From a virus: DNA of 5,523 nt. Of the stretch, positions 1 through 5,523 are shown piece after piece. The position numbers and the translations under genes are program-made. The first letter of the stretch is position 1, and each line of letters starts with the position of its first letter. The stretch is from IMG/VR virus record IMGVR_UViG_3300045988_094648, positions 1 to 5,523 of that record; one strand, 5' to 3'. The notes under the pieces were generated by a model. The model saw nothing but the letters and a program-made list of their open reading frames with translations. It did no database searches and had not been told where the DNA came from.

Positions 1-904
1 AGTCTATCTGGGCACGCACACGATTTACATACTTTAGCGCATTATCTTCGGTCTGACCTTTAGCCTGCAAGTACTCGACCAGAGACCGAGCATTAAGTTC
101 ACCTTGTATGTACTTTTCAGTCATCATTTTGACTTGATTCAAGCTTGTTTCGGAGTCAAGTCGTAAAATTTCATGCGCATTCTTCTCGATATCGCTATCA
201 ATTTTCGCGATTTCGTGAGGCAGTAAAGCATTAATCCGGTTTGTTTGCGCTCCGAGATTCGCAGTTGTCGCATTTGCGACGTCTGTCTGCGGACCGCTAA
301 TATATCGAGCCTCAGCATTGTATTTATCAATCTCAGACTGCGCTTTCGCAGTGCCGACACCTTTTGTGAAATCAGCACTGGCTTGTAAATTATTCGCATT
401 AGCAAGTAGCTGCACTAATTGAGTCTCTAACATAGCCTTTTTGTAATCTGCTTCTGTTGACGCGGCACGACCTTCCTGCGTCTTTTTATATGTATCCGCA
501 CTAAGATTCAAATTTTGCTGCTCCAAATTTTTTTCCTGCTGCTGTTGAATCTTTCGATTCGTCTTAGCAGAATACATACCAGTCATAGCATTAATACCAT
601 TAGAAACATCTGAACCATAACCAGTATAAGCATTAGAGGAATAAGAAGCGGTCGCGCCGGCAGGTGTCGACGCGCCTTGGCCACCCATGCCAGAAAGCAT
701 GGGATTCAAGCCGGCTTTACGCAAATCTTCAATCTCGCGCTGATGGGCCGTGGAAGACATCTTTTCTTGCCAATCACGAGTTTTTTGCGCTTCCTGCGAT
801 TGCCATTGCATCTGCTCACGCGAAAGTGCAGCCTGGGCATTAGCCGATTTATTACCCGACCATATACCAAGGGCGGCGCCGGCGACCGACGATAAAAAAC
901 TCAT
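1..904 (-). CDS. VP2: VP2 minor capsid / DNA pilot protein, N-terminal 301 codons. The ORF is open to the window edge and continues across the circular junction into 5468..5329.
   Basis: I translated the minus strand by hand. ATG is at 904..902, preceded by AAGGAG (920..915) with a 10-nt spacer. The frame is open all the way to position 1 (MSFLSSVAGAALGIWSGNKSANAQAALSREQMQWQSQEAQKTRDWQEKMSSTAHQREIEDLRKAGLNPMLSGMGG...). Position directly downstream of VP1, the Gly/Ala-rich N-terminus and the Q/N/K-rich coiled-coil-like body fit gokushovirus VP2. The ORF track omits it because it has no in-window stop. Confidence 0.8.
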   Translation of the reverse strand, partial: MSFLSSVAGAALGIWSGNKSANAQAALSREQMQWQSQEAQKTRDWQEKMSSTAHQREIEDLRKAGLNPMLSGMGGQGASTPAGATASYSSNAYTGYGSDVSNGINAMTGMYSAKTNRKIQQQQEKNLEQQNLNLSADTYKKTQEGRAASTEADYKKAMLETQLVQLLANANNLQASADFTKGVGTAKAQSEIDKYNAEARYISGPQTDVANATTANLGAQTNRINALLPHEIAKIDSDIEKNAHEILRLDSETSLNQVKMMTEKYIQGELNARSLVEYLQAKGQTEDNALKYVNRVRAQID

Positions 905-919
905 ACGTCATCAACTCCT

Positions 920-2611
920 TTAGAAATGATCAAGCATACCAGGAACACCATAAACCGGCATGGGGCGAGCGCATTTTAAATCTAAATACGCATCAAGGTA
1001 AAACTGCGGCTCACTTTGTACAGCACTAATACGCTTAATAGCCTGATAACTAGCCTGGTCCTGAATAAACTCGCCATTAAGTGCGGGTAAAGCATCAAAT
1101 TTTTGTGCAAAATGCCAAACATCAACACTCTGTGCATAGGTACTACGCATCTTGCCGGTAATGATAGAAGGATGATACCGGCATTCGGCATAGCGTTCCT
1201 GGTAACCAAAAACCTGATTGTCGCTATCATTGCCTTGAGCATAAATTTCCTTATTGAGCACGGCCTGCTCTCCAAGGTGAGCAAAAGTAGGCCAATAAAA
1301 CTCTTCACGAGTTTGGCGCAGCCATGTCTTATTAATGCCCTGCTGATAGCTCAAATCAGTACGAATATTACATAAACCAATAACAATTCCGTGCTCAGTA
1401 AACGACTTATTAAAACCATGAACACGCGTACTCATTAAAGCATACGCAGACAAGTTACCCTGTGGGGACGTGGTATCTGTGGAGGACGTCTGTTGAACAG
1501 GATTGAACATAATTGGAGTGGAATCACCACCGAGGTATTCACTGCGCTGGAGACGGGCATCGGGCGAAATAATACCAAAGTGCGAGCGGATAATCTCCGT
1601 GTAACGAGTACCACCACGAGCATCTTTTTCGTAAAACCGCTGGAGCGCAAAGGCAGAGCGCAAACTATTAATCGTGATTGCCGTTGCACTGGACAAATCG
1701 ACCCTCGCATGGCTCGAGTCGGCGGTACCGGAAACCGTCACGCTGCCAGACATCCAGACGGGAACGTTTATATCGGAATCGGACTGCATAGTTGCATAAA
1801 GTCTCGAGTCATTAGCTACTGACACAGGCGAGCCAGAAACACCCGAGGGCCGGGGCGAAATAGGCAATCGACCCCTTAAGCTGTCGTCATTAATACTACC
1901 AGTAGCGGAAACCGGAAGTGATCCAGTAATAGTTGCAGATTGGCCAAGAGGTAACTCTACGCCAGGACCCTTTTGAGGCCAGGGCAAGGCGCTCGTAAAA
2001 TAATCATGACGCTTACCACGATAAAAACATTGAGCAGCCGTAGCATCTTGCGAAGCATCACCACCATATGCGTCATCTTCCGAGGATGTCGAAGAAAGCG
2101 GTGCACCAGTTTGGATAGACACAGCATTTTGAAGATTTTCATCACGGAACCAGTCATTATAAATCTTCCAATACGCTCTAAACGGGAACGCACTTACAGA
2201 CAACTTATTTTTTACCTCAGTCGGAAAACCGAAATAGTCCCACAACGTCTGGACCTGTGCATTCGTAGCCGTCATCTGCGGCACTTCATAGTCTTTACTT
2301 TGATAGCCTGCAAGTGGATTTTCGCCATTAAATTCCTTCCAATGCTTCCATAATAAGCGATATGGGACGAAAAAAAAGAAGGTGTCTAAGTACGCATTAT
2401 CCATCGCCGGAACAATCGGCGTGGCCATACGACCAAAAAGCGTTGCCTTACAATTAAAAGTATCACCAGGGTAGACTTCATCAATATAAAATGGAACAAG
2501 TCGACCTGCATCCAGTGTGGTTTTTACTGTATGTGAGCGCTTGAAGGAAGACCGGGGAATTTGATTCTGAGGACTTATAGCAAAACTGTGCTGAGTAGCT
2601 CTTTTTGACAT
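920..2611 (-). CDS. VP1: VP1 major capsid protein, 563 aa.
   Basis: ORF from the track. The N-terminus ...IPRSSFKRSHTVKTTLDAGRLVPFYIDEVYPGDTF... is the classic gokushovirus/microvirus F-like capsid signature. An internal Ser/Thr/Gly-rich variable insertion is also present. The RBS AGGAGA lies 9 nt upstream of ATG 2611..2609. The TAA stop is at 922..920. Confidence 0.95.
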   Translation of the reverse strand: MSKRATQHSFAISPQNQIPRSSFKRSHTVKTTLDAGRLVPFYIDEVYPGDTFNCKATLFGRMATPIVPAMDNAYLDTFFFFVPYRLLWKHWKEFNGENPLAGYQSKDYEVPQMTATNAQVQTLWDYFGFPTEVKNKLSVSAFPFRAYWKIYNDWFRDENLQNAVSIQTGAPLSSTSSEDDAYGGDASQDATAAQCFYRGKRHDYFTSALPWPQKGPGVELPLGQSATITGSLPVSATGSINDDSLRGRLPISPRPSGVSGSPVSVANDSRLYATMQSDSDINVPVWMSGSVTVSGTADSSHARVDLSSATAITINSLRSAFALQRFYEKDARGGTRYTEIIRSHFGIISPDARLQRSEYLGGDSTPIMFNPVQQTSSTDTTSPQGNLSAYALMSTRVHGFNKSFTEHGIVIGLCNIRTDLSYQQGINKTWLRQTREEFYWPTFAHLGEQAVLNKEIYAQGNDSDNQVFGYQERYAECRYHPSIITGKMRSTYAQSVDVWHFAQKFDALPALNGEFIQDQASYQAIKRISAVQSEPQFYLDAYLDLKCARPMPVYGVPGMLDHF

Positions 2612-2772: not shown

Positions 2773-3210
2773 CTAACCATTAGCATTATCGCCTGCATTA
2801 TTATCCACATTTTCCGTATGATTATCAGACTTAACAACGGTCTTGGTGGCAAGACCCATAGCCACAAGTTCGTCTAAATTTTCCGGATTATCGGCAAATT
2901 CCAGGAAAGCGGCGGGGTCGTAATTAAAACGCTTACGAACCTCCAATGGCAAATTGTCAAAGTTATTTTTAGCCTCTATCATACGATTGTACATCTCCTG
3001 TGCATTGTCCGGCAGTGATGCAAAATCACCAAAAACAGGCTGTGCCGGCTGTCCATCACCATGAAAAGTCGGCATAACACCAGAAGAATCATACATAGAG
3101 ACAATATAATTTATATCTGCCTCGTCTTTAAACTGCTGCTGAGTCAAGGAGGGCATACTAGATTTCCAACCTTCACGAACGCCTGCATTATACCTAGAGC
3201 GAATCTCCAT
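2773..3210 (-). CDS. VP3: VP3 internal scaffolding protein, about 145 aa from the internal Met. The track ORF extends to 3303, but the 5' extension lacks an RBS and overlaps the upstream gene.
   Basis: The sequence MEIRSRYNAGVREGWKSSMPSLTQQQFKDEADINYIVSMYDSSGVMPTFHGDGQPAQPVFGDFASLPDNAQEMYNRMIEAKNNFDNLPLEVRKRFNYDPAAFLEF... resembles gokushovirus scaffold proteins. AAAGGAG lies 8 nt upstream of ATG 3210..3208. Position immediately upstream of VP1. Size is typical. Confidence 0.75.
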   Translation of the reverse strand: MEIRSRYNAGVREGWKSSMPSLTQQQFKDEADINYIVSMYDSSGVMPTFHGDGQPAQPVFGDFASLPDNAQEMYNRMIEAKNNFDNLPLEVRKRFNYDPAAFLEFADNPENLDELVAMGLATKTVVKSDNHTENVDNNAGDNANG

Positions 3211-3472
3211 TAGCTTCACTCCTTTCAACATTAGCGCACTGCATGGCATGACAAATAAAAGTAGGCATATCATAAGGCTTAAGAATACCTTTCTCGTCAT
3301 CAAATTCTCCTAAGCAGTACAAATGGAAATCGCCGAGGTGCTGACTAACAAGACTCCGACTATCGTTACACAAATCACTAAAAGAACGGCCAGCAACCAG
3401 GTCATTTTGGGCAAAGTACGGCGTATTAAAGCACTGTGCCTTATCATCCAAGATTGAATAAACCTTAAGCAT
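3194..3472 (-). CDS. 92-aa VP5-like non-structural protein (putative). Its last 17 nt overlap the VP3 start.
   Basis: ORF from the track (MLKVYSILDDKAQCFNTPYFAQNDLVAGRSFSDL...LGEFDDEKGILKPYD...). AAAGGAG lies 10 nt upstream of ATG 3472..3470. Position between VP4 and VP3 is where gokushoviruses carry VP5. I recognise the family only weakly. Confidence 0.5.
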   Translation of the reverse strand: MLKVYSILDDKAQCFNTPYFAQNDLVAGRSFSDLCNDSRSLVSQHLGDFHLYCLGEFDDEKGILKPYDMPTFICHAMQCANVERSEANGDSL

Positions 3473-3508: not shown

Positions 3509-3709
3509 TCAAAAATAGCGGAAACAATAACGGTCAAGATACGTGCGAGGATAGCGATTTTCCAACTCCTTTCTACTGTAAAAATATTTTGTTTTCCACG
3601 GCGAAAAACAAACAGCATCTGTAATATCAGTATTACGCGCCTTGCAATAAATCTGCCACAAATCTACTTCATCAAAGGACTCATACAATCGATGTACGTA
3701 TATACGCAT
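3509..3709 (-). CDS. 66-aa hypothetical protein. An alternative upstream ATG at 3775 would give 88 aa.
   Basis: A strong Shine-Dalgarno AAAGGAGGT sits 4 nt upstream of ATG 3709..3707 (MRIYVHRLYESFDEVDLWQIYCKARNTDITDAVCFSPWKTKYFYSRKELENRYPRTYLDRYCFRYF). It is on the coding strand between VP4 and the VP5-like gene. I recognise no homology. Confidence 0.4.
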   Translation of the reverse strand: MRIYVHRLYESFDEVDLWQIYCKARNTDITDAVCFSPWKTKYFYSRKELENRYPRTYLDRYCFRYF

Positions 3710-3838
3710 AATACCTCCTTTCACGAGAGGGAGTGTTGCTTGGAATAACAGAAAAGGATCGCTCAATTTAGACATAAAAAAATGCCCTCTCGTTGATACA
3801 ATAGTACCTTACGGGGGGGGCAAACTGTCAAGCAACAT

Positions 3839-4765
3839 CTACTCATACATATCCATATCATCATGTAGCCTTCGGACGAGCTTGGTTAGCTTACGAGCCT
3901 TTAACCGCTCTTGAACCTGGGCAACTTCATACTCTTCCGTTGTCATCGACTCGTCGCGACAATACTTGTCTTGGCGAGCCTTTTTAACTTTCTCATACAA
4001 ATCGGGGTCATCCTTTTCCAACAAGGAATCATAATACGCAGGTGGCTTACATGTCATCCCATCACGAATAACAATAAAGTCATTGGGATAAACCTGACTT
4101 TTATACTTTTCATACCAATCATGACCAAGACCTGGCATGCGTGACATCAAGACAAAAGGCTGCAGGGATTCGTCAACATCATCGCCTTTCTGCTTTTTCA
4201 TCACATAACGAGCAACATAAGCACACGATTCAAAAGTAACACCTCCAACCAAACTGAAGCCGTAGGGCCAAAGCCTTTCTAAAATTGGACTTCTATAATA
4301 CTGGAAGCCATTCTTAACCGTATGAATCATTAAATCCGGAAATCGTAAGCCAAAAATAACTGCATGGTAGTGCGGCCTTTTAAACTTATGGCCATACTCG
4401 CCGCAAGCGAAAAAGCGAAGGCCGTTACCAAACTTCTTACGAAGTCGCTTCATGAATTTCTGGAAAACATCTTTATGAATTTTACCATCTGCCGGCAGAT
4501 ATTCGGGGCTATACGTAAGCGTTAAAAAAGAACCAATACAACCAGCCGTTTCGAACTCATGTACACAACGCATGGCCCATTGCCGGCTATACTCAAGCCG
4601 GCAACCGACACACTGGCCACACGGAACATAAATTGTCTCCGGAAGTCTACCAAGTGGACGCCACGCATTTCCATAATTTGCCGTCAACGAACGCTTGCCG
4701 GTCTCTTTGTTTATCTCCTTACTATACCACATGGGAATGGGATGATAGCATGGCAAACAAATCAC
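3839..4765 (-). CDS. VP4: VP4 rolling-circle replication initiation protein (HUH endonuclease), about 305-308 aa.
   Basis: Motif I is FLTLTY. Motif II (HUH) is PHYHAVIF. Motif III is YVARYVMKK, the catalytic Tyr pair. There is also a Cys cluster CGQCVGCRLEYSRQWAMRC. The track start at 4765 is GTG, directly abutting GGGAGG. A TTG at 4756 has 8-nt spacing from GGGAGG and would give M/LPCYHPIPMWYS... Confidence 0.9.
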   Translation of the reverse strand: MICLPCYHPIPMWYSKEINKETGKRSLTANYGNAWRPLGRLPETIYVPCGQCVGCRLEYSRQWAMRCVHEFETAGCIGSFLTLTYSPEYLPADGKIHKDVFQKFMKRLRKKFGNGLRFFACGEYGHKFKRPHYHAVIFGLRFPDLMIHTVKNGFQYYRSPILERLWPYGFSLVGGVTFESCAYVARYVMKKQKGDDVDESLQPFVLMSRMPGLGHDWYEKYKSQVYPNDFIVIRDGMTCKPPAYYDSLLEKDDPDLYEKVKKARQDKYCRDESMTTEEYEVAQVQERLKARKLTKLVRRLHDDMDMYE

Positions 4766-4788
4766 CTCCCGGAGACTACAAACAAATG

Positions 4789-4902
4789 CTACATTCTAAA
4801 TCCACCGCGCATAGGGATGGGGCGATTATTTTTCGGATTAACCGTCATTCCACGACGGAAATTTTTACCACTCTTTTTTTTACTCATTTTCTGCCGTTTC
4901 AT
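4789..4902 (-). CDS. VP8: VP8/J-like small basic DNA-binding (packaging) protein, 37 aa.
   Basis: Manual translation gives MKRQKMSKKKSGKNFRRGMTVNPKNNRPIPMRGGFRM*. It has 13 Lys/Arg and no acidic residues. It ends in the PMRGGFR-type tail seen in gokushovirus ORF8/VP8 proteins. AAGGAG lies 10 nt upstream of ATG 4902..4900. It sits immediately upstream of VP4. It is missed by the track because of its size. Confidence 0.7.
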   Translation of the reverse strand: MKRQKMSKKKSGKNFRRGMTVNPKNNRPIPMRGGFRM

Positions 4903-4916
4903 ACAACATCAACTCC

Positions 4917-5012
4917 TTATAAAAAAACATCCAATACACTAATCACAAAAGAGACGACTAAAATGCCTAGCACAAGCCAACAAAACAATGCAACCGGCGT
5001 ACTAACCTTCAT
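4917..5012 (-). CDS. 31-aa single-pass transmembrane peptide. Hypothetical; candidate lysis or membrane-active peptide.
   Basis: Manual translation gives MKVSTPVALFCWLVLGILVVSFVISVLDVFL*. AAGGAGA lies 9 nt upstream. Its ATG (5012..5010) overlaps the TGA of the upstream ORF (ATGA). Its TAA (4919..4917) overlaps the VP8 RBS. The 21-residue uninterrupted hydrophobic core has a short polar N-terminus. Confidence 0.5.
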   Translation of the reverse strand: MKVSTPVALFCWLVLGILVVSFVISVLDVFL

Positions 5013-5173
5013 TTCTCGCCATCTCCTTTCATAATTTCCCAAAAATACTTAGACCGCTGCTCATGGGACAAATCATTAATCGACAGCGCATCAAAAACGC
5101 GCATCAAACGCAATGCAATCTTAATACGTTTATACTCATCATCTGAACAATAAATACTACGAGTTTTTCTCAT
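5009..5173 (-). CDS. 54-aa basic protein with an RHH-like (ribbon-helix-helix / MobC-CopG-like) N-terminal pattern. Putative DNA-binding regulator.
   Basis: Manual translation gives MRKTRSIYCSDDEYKRIKIALRLMRVFDALSINDLSHEQRSKYFWEIMKGDGEK*. GAGGTG lies 6 nt upstream of ATG 5173..5171. It is the first gene after a near-consensus promoter. The pattern is basic residues, then a short beta-like stretch (TRSIYCS), then DDEYKRIKIA, as in the RHH/MobC 'R..I.I.LS.EE...L...A' motif. The assignment is tentative. Confidence 0.5.
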   Translation of the reverse strand: MRKTRSIYCSDDEYKRIKIALRLMRVFDALSINDLSHEQRSKYFWEIMKGDGEK

Positions 5174-5192
5174 ATCTATCACCTCTATTAAT

Positions 5193-5216
5193 ATTCTAAC
5201 ACATACTTAATAGAAT
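5193..5216. promoter_or_regulatory. Inverted repeat ATTCTA-N12-TAGAAT overlapping the -35/-10 elements. Candidate operator.
   Basis: Plus strand 5193..5216 reads attctaacacatacttaatagaat. The 6-bp arms are perfect reverse complements. One arm is the -10 hexamer and the other abuts the -35. Confidence 0.3.
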
Positions 5217-5221
5217 GTCAA
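5193..5221 (-). promoter_or_regulatory. Sigma70-type promoter on the coding strand: -35 TTGACA (5221..5216), 17-nt spacer, -10 TAGAAT (5198..5193).
   Basis: Read directly from the sequence. The -35 is a 6/6 match and the -10 a 5/6 match with optimal 17-nt spacing. There is an A/T-rich UP-like stretch upstream (atctttttgtttgtatccta). It is followed 19 nt later by an SD+ATG. It is the only strong promoter match on the coding strand that I found. Confidence 0.6.
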
Positions 5222-5328
5222 TAGGATACAAACAAAAAGATGATAGCCGGCTAAACGCCATCGTACGTCACCGTTCCACTAATACGAAAGAAAAACAATT
5301 CCGCTGAGGCAGCCAAAGGGAAACCAAA

Positions 5329-5523
5329 TCACTTAAAAATTTGTGTAACAAGACCGAGCGGGCTGGCATCAACAAGACCTTTTGCATTGCCAAGGATACG
5401 AGCTAGACGCTCATAAGGACCCTGCGGGGTAACGCCAGAGTAGCGATTCTGAATTTGATACTGTTTCAAGTCTATCTGGGCACGCACACGATTTACATAC
5501 TTTAGCGCATTATCTTCGGTCTG
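5329..5523 (-). CDS. VP2: VP2 C-terminal portion. Bases 5469..5523 duplicate 1..55. The TGA stop is at 5331..5329. The full protein is about 347 aa on the 5,468-nt circle.
   Basis: The frame runs continuously from the 1..904 segment through the junction. Manual translation gives ...LKQYQIQNRYSGVTPQGPYERLARILGNAKGLVDASPLGLVTQIFK*. Confidence 0.75.
   Translation of the reverse strand, partial: QTEDNALKYVNRVRAQIDLKQYQIQNRYSGVTPQGPYERLARILGNAKGLVDASPLGLVTQIFK
5469..5523. repeat. 55-nt terminal redundancy identical to 1..55. This is the circular-genome closure (assembly/windowing overlap), not a biological repeat.
   Basis: Exact identity checked base by base. The implied unit length is 5,468 nt. 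Confidence 0.9.

Follow-up and report, generated by a model that had tools for sequence, protein, structure and literature searches.

The gokushoviruses are among the most abundant ssDNA phages of guts and oceans, and their exit from the host cell is a long-standing gap; only the phiX174-type lysis protein E is explained. E is an amurin of 91 amino acids with one transmembrane (TM) helix, which inhibits MraY, requires SlyD, contains a conserved and essential proline in its TM segment and is encoded by an overprinted gene inside gene D. According to reviews and primary papers, gokushoviruses have no E homolog and no known lysis gene, and only occasionally acquired peptidases have come up as candidates, which agrees with what an earlier sequence-only reading of the DNA studied here had assumed. 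In other microvirus families, lysis-associated accessory genes are located in the same VP1-to-VP4 region (PMC9239249). The known single-gene lysis (Sgl) proteins, for example, SglM/LysM (37 amino acids, a MurJ inhibitor) and the single-TM Sgls of ssRNA phages, are small, typically with a single TM segment, and their sequences do not resemble one another, even where the target is shared. Lysis of the holin–endolysin type needs a muralytic partner.

The DNA analyzed (5,523 nt, in the following termed the window) is a gokushovirus genome with all genes on the minus strand (Table 1). It contains a short gene, designated TM31, whose product resembles the Sgl proteins in being tiny, in having one TM segment, and in belonging to a small phage genome without holin or endolysin. 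Like the Sgls, TM31 is also fast-evolving and lineage-specific, shows no homology to other lysis proteins, and is translationally coupled to an upstream gene. In contrast to the Sgls, it never comes without a dedicated partner gene, it is found in an ssDNA gokushovirus of a Negativicutes host, and it shares no sequence similarity with them. Like phiX174 E, TM31 is a membrane protein of a member of the Microviridae with a diderm host, and both contain a single TM helix. However, TM31 occupies 96 free-standing nucleotides of its own between ORF54 and the VP8-like gene, comprises 31 instead of 91 amino acids, and lacks a conserved proline (Pro6 occurs in type A only, and none is present in types B and C; the types are described below). 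A profile of 17 TM peptides compared with all PDB chain sequences, which presumably include the MraY-E-SlyD complex, gave no match at all at E ≤ 10, and no E-relevant match of TM31 was obtained in Pfam or PHROGs.

Table 1. Features of the gokushovirus genome and of the cassette containing TM31 (coordinates of the window)
Feature	Position	Strand	Basis
TM31, gene for a 31-aa single-pass membrane peptide (predicted), 96 nt	4917..5012	minus	sequence, conservation, pN/pS
Shine–Dalgarno sequence of TM31, AAGGAGA, 9 nt before the ATG, within the 3' end of ORF54	5028..5022	minus	sequence
ORF54, gene for a 54-aa soluble partner, 165 nt	5009..5173	minus	conserved motif, pairing, AF2 model
Sigma-70-type promoter: TTGACA, 17-nt spacer, TAGAAT, extended −10 TG, 11/12 matches	5193..5221	minus	about 20 nt upstream of ORF54
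Imperfect palindrome over −35 and −10, 14-nt arms, 86% complementary	5185..5224		fold
Cassette (promoter, ORF54, TM31)	4913..5224	minus	limits of the segment in the Megasphaera array; hypervariable block in the clade
VP8/J-like protein, 37 aa, highly basic, DNA-binding	4902..4789	minus	phrog_10695
VP4 (Rep)	4765..3839	minus	Pfam
VP5	3472..3194	minus	Pfam
VP3	about 3210..2773	minus	Pfam
VP1	2611..920	minus	Pfam
VP2, 347 aa, across the junction	904..1 + 5468..5329	minus	order of the core genes identified by Pfam

An exact 55-nt direct repeat at positions 1–55 and 5469–5523 represents a terminal redundancy (assembly overlap) and indicates a circular genome with a unit length of 5468 nt. When all ORFs of the window were compared with Pfam, only VP1, VP3, VP4, and VP5 were recognized, and the genome contained no peptidase, lysozyme, holin, or endolysin domain. 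As ORF54 did not match any enzyme family either, the muralytic partner of a holin–endolysin system is missing. An Rfam search with the whole window gave no match. A hidden, E-like overprinted lysis gene was not supported: several off-frame hydrophobic ORFs exist, yet in a scan of limited power covering 9–12 genomes at about 85% identity, synonymous variation did not fall under 50% of the mean of the respective gene in any 25-codon window of VP1–VP5. The VP8-like gene, whose Shine–Dalgarno (SD) sequence (TAAGGAG, 4919..4913) overlaps the TM31 stop codon, and VP4 are the genomic context of TM31 and do not belong to its cassette. Between VP4 and VP5, an ORF of 88 amino acids (probably 66, starting with MRIYVHR) was detected at 3775..3509 on the minus strand. 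It is present in only some of the related genomes (L027, L030, L111, and L113) and has neither a family match nor a TM segment. This second accessory gene was dropped as a rival candidate for membrane lysis due to its patchy distribution and the missing TM segment.

The sequence-only reading had described a 31-aa ORF with a 21-residue helix, an AAGGAGA SD sequence, and coupling to the upstream gene, and all of these elements were found on the minus strand. The ORF extends from an ATG at 5012..5010 to a TAA stop codon at 4919..4917 and is translated into MKVSTPVALFCWLVLGILVVSFVISVLDVFL. The ATG overlaps the TGA stop codon of ORF54 as ATGA, and purine-rich sites equivalent to the SD sequence are kept in relatives. 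Residues 7–27 form an uncharged hydrophobic stretch of 21 residues (Kyte–Doolittle (KD) 17-residue maximum of 2.87; simple Hessa-scale sum of −3.75 kcal/mol) with K2 on its N-terminal and D28 on its C-terminal side. Based on the positive-inside rule, an N-in/C-out topology is predicted, in which K2 would be located inside and D28 outside. The hydrophobicity of TM31 by itself is not beyond chance, as 7 of the 28 sense-strand ORFs of at least 25 amino acids reach a KD value ≥2.0 on the T-rich coding strand; it is the conservation that lifts TM31 above chance. Within the window, TM31 is the sole TM-like ORF with its own space, SD sequence, and start codon.

Related sequences were obtained from GenBank pig-faeces viromes, IMG/VR, metagenomes, and Logan assemblies, and genomes with a VP4 at least 80% identical were assigned to one clade. 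Every clade genome in which the region is covered (about 30 genomes) contains a single-TM ORF of 30–37 amino acids at the position of TM31. This applies to 6/6 GenBank genomes, 12/12 IMG/VR loci, 6/6 metagenome loci, and five Logan genomes. The ORFs overlap the stop codon of the ORF54 homolog and end 14–19 nt before the VP8-like gene, and the start codon, the SD sequence, and the length are intact across the clade. The pN/pS values were 0.29, 0.38, and 0.47 in three subgroups comprising 19 distinct nucleotide versions. Codon position 2, which fixes hydrophobicity, was the least variable (variable columns in type A: 10/3/13). These comparisons show that TM31 is a real gene under purifying selection. 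In distant gokushoviruses with a recognizable basic ORF, a TM-like ORF was found at the corresponding slot in only about 7 of 40 cases, and the sequences were unrelated. The positional conservation that the sequence-only reading had demanded across related genomes is thus given within the clade (VP4 ≥80%) and not among gokushoviruses in general. A TM mini-ORF common to the whole family was ruled out, because in distant genomes such ORFs turn up only sporadically upstream of VP8 and are unrelated in sequence.

A profile search based on an alignment headed by a 41-aa, TTG-extended form of TM31 retrieved 27 protein clusters from a database of 5.8 billion proteins. All of them were annotated as "hypothetical," and nearly all were located on contigs of about 5.3–5.5 kb, the size of a microvirus genome. 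A degenerate peptide pattern derived from the TM alignment had no match in viral contigs. Altogether, 54 distinct TM31 peptides were collected, including types with only about 30% identity. All 54 contain the motif [SG]x[LIVF][DE][VA][FL] near the C-terminus, 52 carry Lys or Arg within the first eight residues, and in 51 a Cys is present early in the helix, usually in an "FC" motif. The insertion free energy (simple Hessa-scale sum) was negative for each of the 54 variants, so membrane insertion is predicted. That motifs remain invariant in such a short peptide points to a specific protein target and not to general damage of the membrane.

ORF54, the gene upstream of TM31, encodes a protein with the N-terminal conserved motif K-(T/S)-R-S-(I/V)-Y-C-(S/T)-x-x-E-Y-x-R-(L/I)-K-x-A-L. 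Its homologs comprise 54–73 amino acids, and the AF2 model (pLDDT 73.5) displays an extended N-terminus and two helices. The family is very small, with 19 close clusters; an exhaustive profile search of 1.84 billion proteins yielded only eight representatives, of which P0185, a 714-aa repeat protein, is probably spurious. The genomic contexts of P0182, P0183, P0186, and P0187, some of which are below 50% identity, were inspected. Each of these genes is located in a microvirus and is followed by a stop-overlapping TM mini-ORF. ORF54 and TM31 were never seen apart, and this constant company may reflect a function with two components. Searches with ORF54 gave no match to a known fold or family, including the ribbon-helix-helix (RHH) profile and fold, and a search of the GTDB species genomes for members of the family was negative. 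Neither ORF54 nor TM31 matched entries in Pfam, PHROGs, PADLOC, NCBIfam, or the PDB sequences, apart from a weak and uninformative PHROG match of TM31 (phrog_2501, E = 0.023, function unknown).

Three types of the cassette (A, B, and C) were distinguished. Between the types, amino acid sequence identities are 31–45% for ORF54 and 32–43% for TM31, while VP1, VP2, VP3, VP4, VP5, and VP8 of the same genomes are 84–99% identical. Megablast homology between close genomes stops exactly at the TM31 stop codon. Judged by this pattern, ORF54 and TM31 form a clade-specific, fast-evolving accessory cassette. The palindrome spanning the promoter is the main hairpin of the intergenic region when folded as ssDNA (z = −2.2), and its core TTCTAT...ATAGAA is common to all cassette types. 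It could serve as an operator, as an ssDNA hairpin, or as a complementary-strand origin signal. The promoter-proximal location of TM31 implies early and strong expression, which speaks against a lytic role.

The probable host of the clade is Megasphaera, a diderm member of the Negativicutes, as indicated by three independent lines of evidence. Firstly, contig L097 contains exactly one unit-length clade genome (6448–11821). Both junctions correspond to window position 3135, inside VP3, where phage and flanking DNA share just the 9-nt core AAGGACGAA, and the flanking proteins are exact matches to proteins of Megasphaera massiliensis or other Megasphaera. This single contig may represent an integrated gokushovirus prophage interrupted in VP3. 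Secondly, four consecutive 32-nt spacers in an array (about 5950–7990) of the Megasphaera MAG CAKPYN010000024.1 (L188) match clade genomes. One of them is identical over 32/32 nt to L115:2169–2200, inside an ORF54-family gene, and the others match L014 (25/25), L012 and L097 (27/28), and window positions 1674–1696 in VP1 (22/23). The third line is a copy of the cassette in Megasphaera chromosomal DNA. No literature that pairs Megasphaera with microviruses as host and phage was found.

This chromosomal copy is part of a CRISPR array. Contigs L098–L110 share with the phage only the segment corresponding to window positions 5224..4913 (81.5% identity over 314 nt), which begins a little before the −35 element and extends to the stop codon of TM31. 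It includes an intact promoter, the ORF54 counterpart (here ORF56), and TM31. The insert of about 316 nt is located between two copies of the 29-nt repeat GTATGCCCCGCATGCGCGGGGATGAT(CCC), and both bordering repeats lack the terminal CCC. The mini-array (L098:1111–1667, also in L099–L110) consists of five type I-E-like repeats spaced 61, 345, 61, and 61 nt and has the same orientation as the inserted genes. The repeat family is a genuine CRISPR family with a 61-nt period, present in Megasphaera and Mitsuokella. The neighboring genes, including HipA, a TPP riboswitch with thiC, and prfC, are all of the Megasphaera type. At least 24 contigs, which stem from three SRA accession series, carry the ORF56 variant (P0007), always in this bacterial context and never in a microvirus genome, which makes an assembly chimera unlikely. 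Since all bacterial copies are identical, they represent one event in one lineage. The syntenic mini-array of the reference MAG (L188) consists of repeat–spacer–repeat only and has no insert, and the closest phage version of the cassette belongs to an ordinary gokushovirus genome (L111). Most simply, the insert is an aberrant, oversized acquisition from a phage fought by the owner of the array. It shows that Megasphaera is not strongly harmed by the intact unit of promoter, ORF54, and TM31. It is unusual for a complete phage gene cassette to occupy the position of a spacer, and this bears on the acquisition, and perhaps the domestication, of phage genes by CRISPR arrays. Further irregular gaps were noticed in arrays of Megasphaera and Mitsuokella, namely 377 nt (L188:6224–6600) and about 1.4 kb (L189:1830–3236); the 377-nt gap had no match to the phages collected.

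We tentatively consider TM31 a candidate membrane-acting effector for lysis of the diderm host, with ORF54 as its regulator or neutralizer; among the functions weighed, this appears to be the single most likely one. In a diderm host the cell wall must be breached. Lysis is favored by the lack of a muralytic enzyme and of a signal for an overprinted gene, by the status of TM31 as the sole free-standing gene for a membrane peptide, by its conserved motifs, and by its fast evolution. Transcription from the promoter at 5221..5193 would yield a transcript with ORF54 and TM31 as the first two cistrons, so that both proteins would be made together. TM31 would then be inserted into the inner membrane as an N-in/C-out peptide. 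There, it may bind a host membrane protein of the cell wall precursor pathway via the FC and the periplasm-proximal S-x-(I/L)-(D/E) motifs, and it would attack the envelope and cause lysis in the manner of the small single-TM "protein antibiotics" with which other tiny phages lyse their hosts. ORF54 could be a co-evolving partner, which either regulates the palindromic promoter or neutralizes TM31 and thereby sets the timing. The rapid divergence of TM31 fits an arms race with a host target. As distant gokushoviruses with the same gene order lack the cassette, it cannot represent the ancestral lysis mechanism of the gokushoviruses.

The proposal of the sequence-only reading that TM31 is an amurin-like, single-gene lysis protein thus stands in part. 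A coupled gene for a single-TM mini-protein is present, but the constant pairing with ORF54 is unlike true single-gene lysis, the confinement to a single clade likewise speaks against a simple amurin, and a relation to E or LysM was not found. Moreover, the intact, promoter-bearing copy on at least 24 contigs of a Megasphaera lineage does not easily fit a lytic protein that is unregulated. What is new is a two-component, hypervariable variant of the theme of small phage membrane effectors, which is unrelated by sequence to the known ones and resides in a gokushovirus of Negativicutes. The candidate, a gene of 96 nt that can be taken alone or together with its 165-nt partner, is concrete and cheap to test, and the data supply a probable host genus as well as types A, B, and C as natural alleles for the mapping of specificity. 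In case of lytic activity, the target of TM31 would constitute a new "weak spot" of the Negativicutes envelope, and its obligate partner would add a new mode of control for a peptide of this kind. Otherwise, the cassette would still be the main fast-evolving host-interaction module of these phages.

A possible, although not a probable, explanation is that the cassette confers immunity or superinfection exclusion. ORF54 would then be a DNA-binding repressor of the palindromic promoter, and TM31 would be a non-lethal peptide that either keeps related phages from entering or modulates a membrane protein of the host. Together, they would protect carrier-state or lysogenic cells, and the Megasphaera copy would have been domesticated for immunity. 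The conservation of the promoter palindrome across the cassette types is in line with this assumption, and hypervariability is typical of specificity determinants in exclusion and immunity. Within one Megasphaera lineage, the intact chromosomal copy with its promoter is widespread and tolerated, its surroundings are rich in defense genes (HipA, CRISPR arrays), and the clade genome integrated in Megasphaera DNA points to a non-lytic state that may exist. On the other hand, none of the family and fold searches supports DNA binding by ORF54, the integrated copy is a single contig, and the identity of all bacterial copies means that selection for a function there cannot be shown. Exclusion would also leave the phage without any lysis candidate.

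It is rather unlikely that TM31 is a membrane-depolarizing toxin with ORF54 as its protein antidote or repressor, serving carrier-state maintenance, host shut-off, or competition between phages and not programmed lysis. The order of partner and toxin, the stop/start overlap, the obligate co-occurrence, and the divergence of both proteins in step between the types would be expected of such a module, and a co-expressed antidote would explain why the chromosomal copy is tolerated. However, no match to toxin–antitoxin or defense families was obtained, and to our knowledge protein-antitoxin systems with toxins of about 31 amino acids are not an established class. TM31 does resemble the type I toxins (Hok, TisB, Fst, and the CRISPR-adjoining toxins of C. 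difficile) as a hydrophobic peptide of about 30 residues with one TM helix, of which one copy lies within a CRISPR array. That it belongs to this class, with whose architecture the sequence-only reading had compared it, was nevertheless not supported. TM31 has no sequence relationship to a toxin family, it is co-transcribed and coupled with a protein partner, and neither a known antitoxin RNA nor an antisense promoter-like site at or downstream of TM31 was detected by Rfam on the window and a promoter scan of positions 4600–5523, a weak test by which a novel sRNA would be missed. Precedents for a link to CRISPR arrays are the phage-derived, CRISPR-associated toxin CreP (bioRxiv 10.1101/2024.01.05.574328) and the small hydrophobic toxins of C. 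difficile, which adjoin CRISPR arrays (PMC5961336). Like the CreTA/CrePA modules, of which CrePA contains a phage-derived protein toxin, the Megasphaera copy is phage-derived, has its own promoter, and lies among CRISPR repeats with degenerate 3' ends. Unlike in CreTA/CrePA, a psi-spacer partially matching the cassette promoter was not found: the four neighboring spacers matched the cassette no better than shuffled controls, which also speaks against a toxin module. Furthermore, the contigs inspected contain no cas genes, the cassette takes the place of a spacer in the array instead of lying in a cas operon, and the CreTA/CrePA toxin is not a membrane peptide.

A more far-reaching scenario seems improbable to us. 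In it, ORF54 and TM31 of the Megasphaera gokushoviruses would constitute a novel lysis or toxin system of two components, whose effector would be among the smallest known for lysis, and the type I-E adaptation machinery of the host would have captured the whole unit of promoter and both genes as a 316-nt "giant spacer." Processed or expressed from the array, the unit would have been domesticated for immunity or abortive infection directed at these same phages. Even less credence is given to TM31 as an accessory factor that supports replication, assembly, or DNA delivery at the membrane without killing. Such a role could be derived from the operon shared with the VP8-like DNA-binding protein and the Rep protein VP4, and phiX174 also encodes a small, non-essential protein, K, which affects the burst size. 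But proteins in contact with conserved phage partners should not be encoded by the most divergent genes of the genome, and most gokushoviruses with the same core genes lack the cassette. That a hydrophobic ORF arose by chance in a T-rich spacer between genes, as the frequency of KD values ≥2.0 and the many off-frame hydrophobic ORFs on this strand might suggest, is effectively refuted by the comparative data, that is, by the maintenance of ORF, start, SD sequence, length, and motifs in 54 variants including types of about 30% identity, by the pN/pS of 0.29–0.47, and by the strongest constraint on codon position 2.

Some further observations concern the region between VP2 and the VP8-like gene. 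In two distant gokushoviruses (L087:1214–1390 and L043; VP4 about 42–44%), unrelated small proteins are encoded at the same slot upstream of the VP8-like gene. They display lipoprotein-like signal peptides (e.g., ...LTTIAGCGT..., followed by a Pro-rich tail), which hints that this slot holds accessory proteins acting on the envelope. In L007 (MG945505.1), an extra ORF for a Cys-rich protein of 90 amino acids with a good SD sequence is present between VP2 and the ORF54 homolog (4919–5191); the VP2–VP8 slot evidently takes additional cargo. A 56-nt stretch of the intergenic region between VP2 and ORF54 (window 5303..5248, minus strand) recurs with 89% identity at L097:11316–11371, where it is located elsewhere, in the intergenic region between VP4 and VP5, and may be a small mobile or regulatory element.
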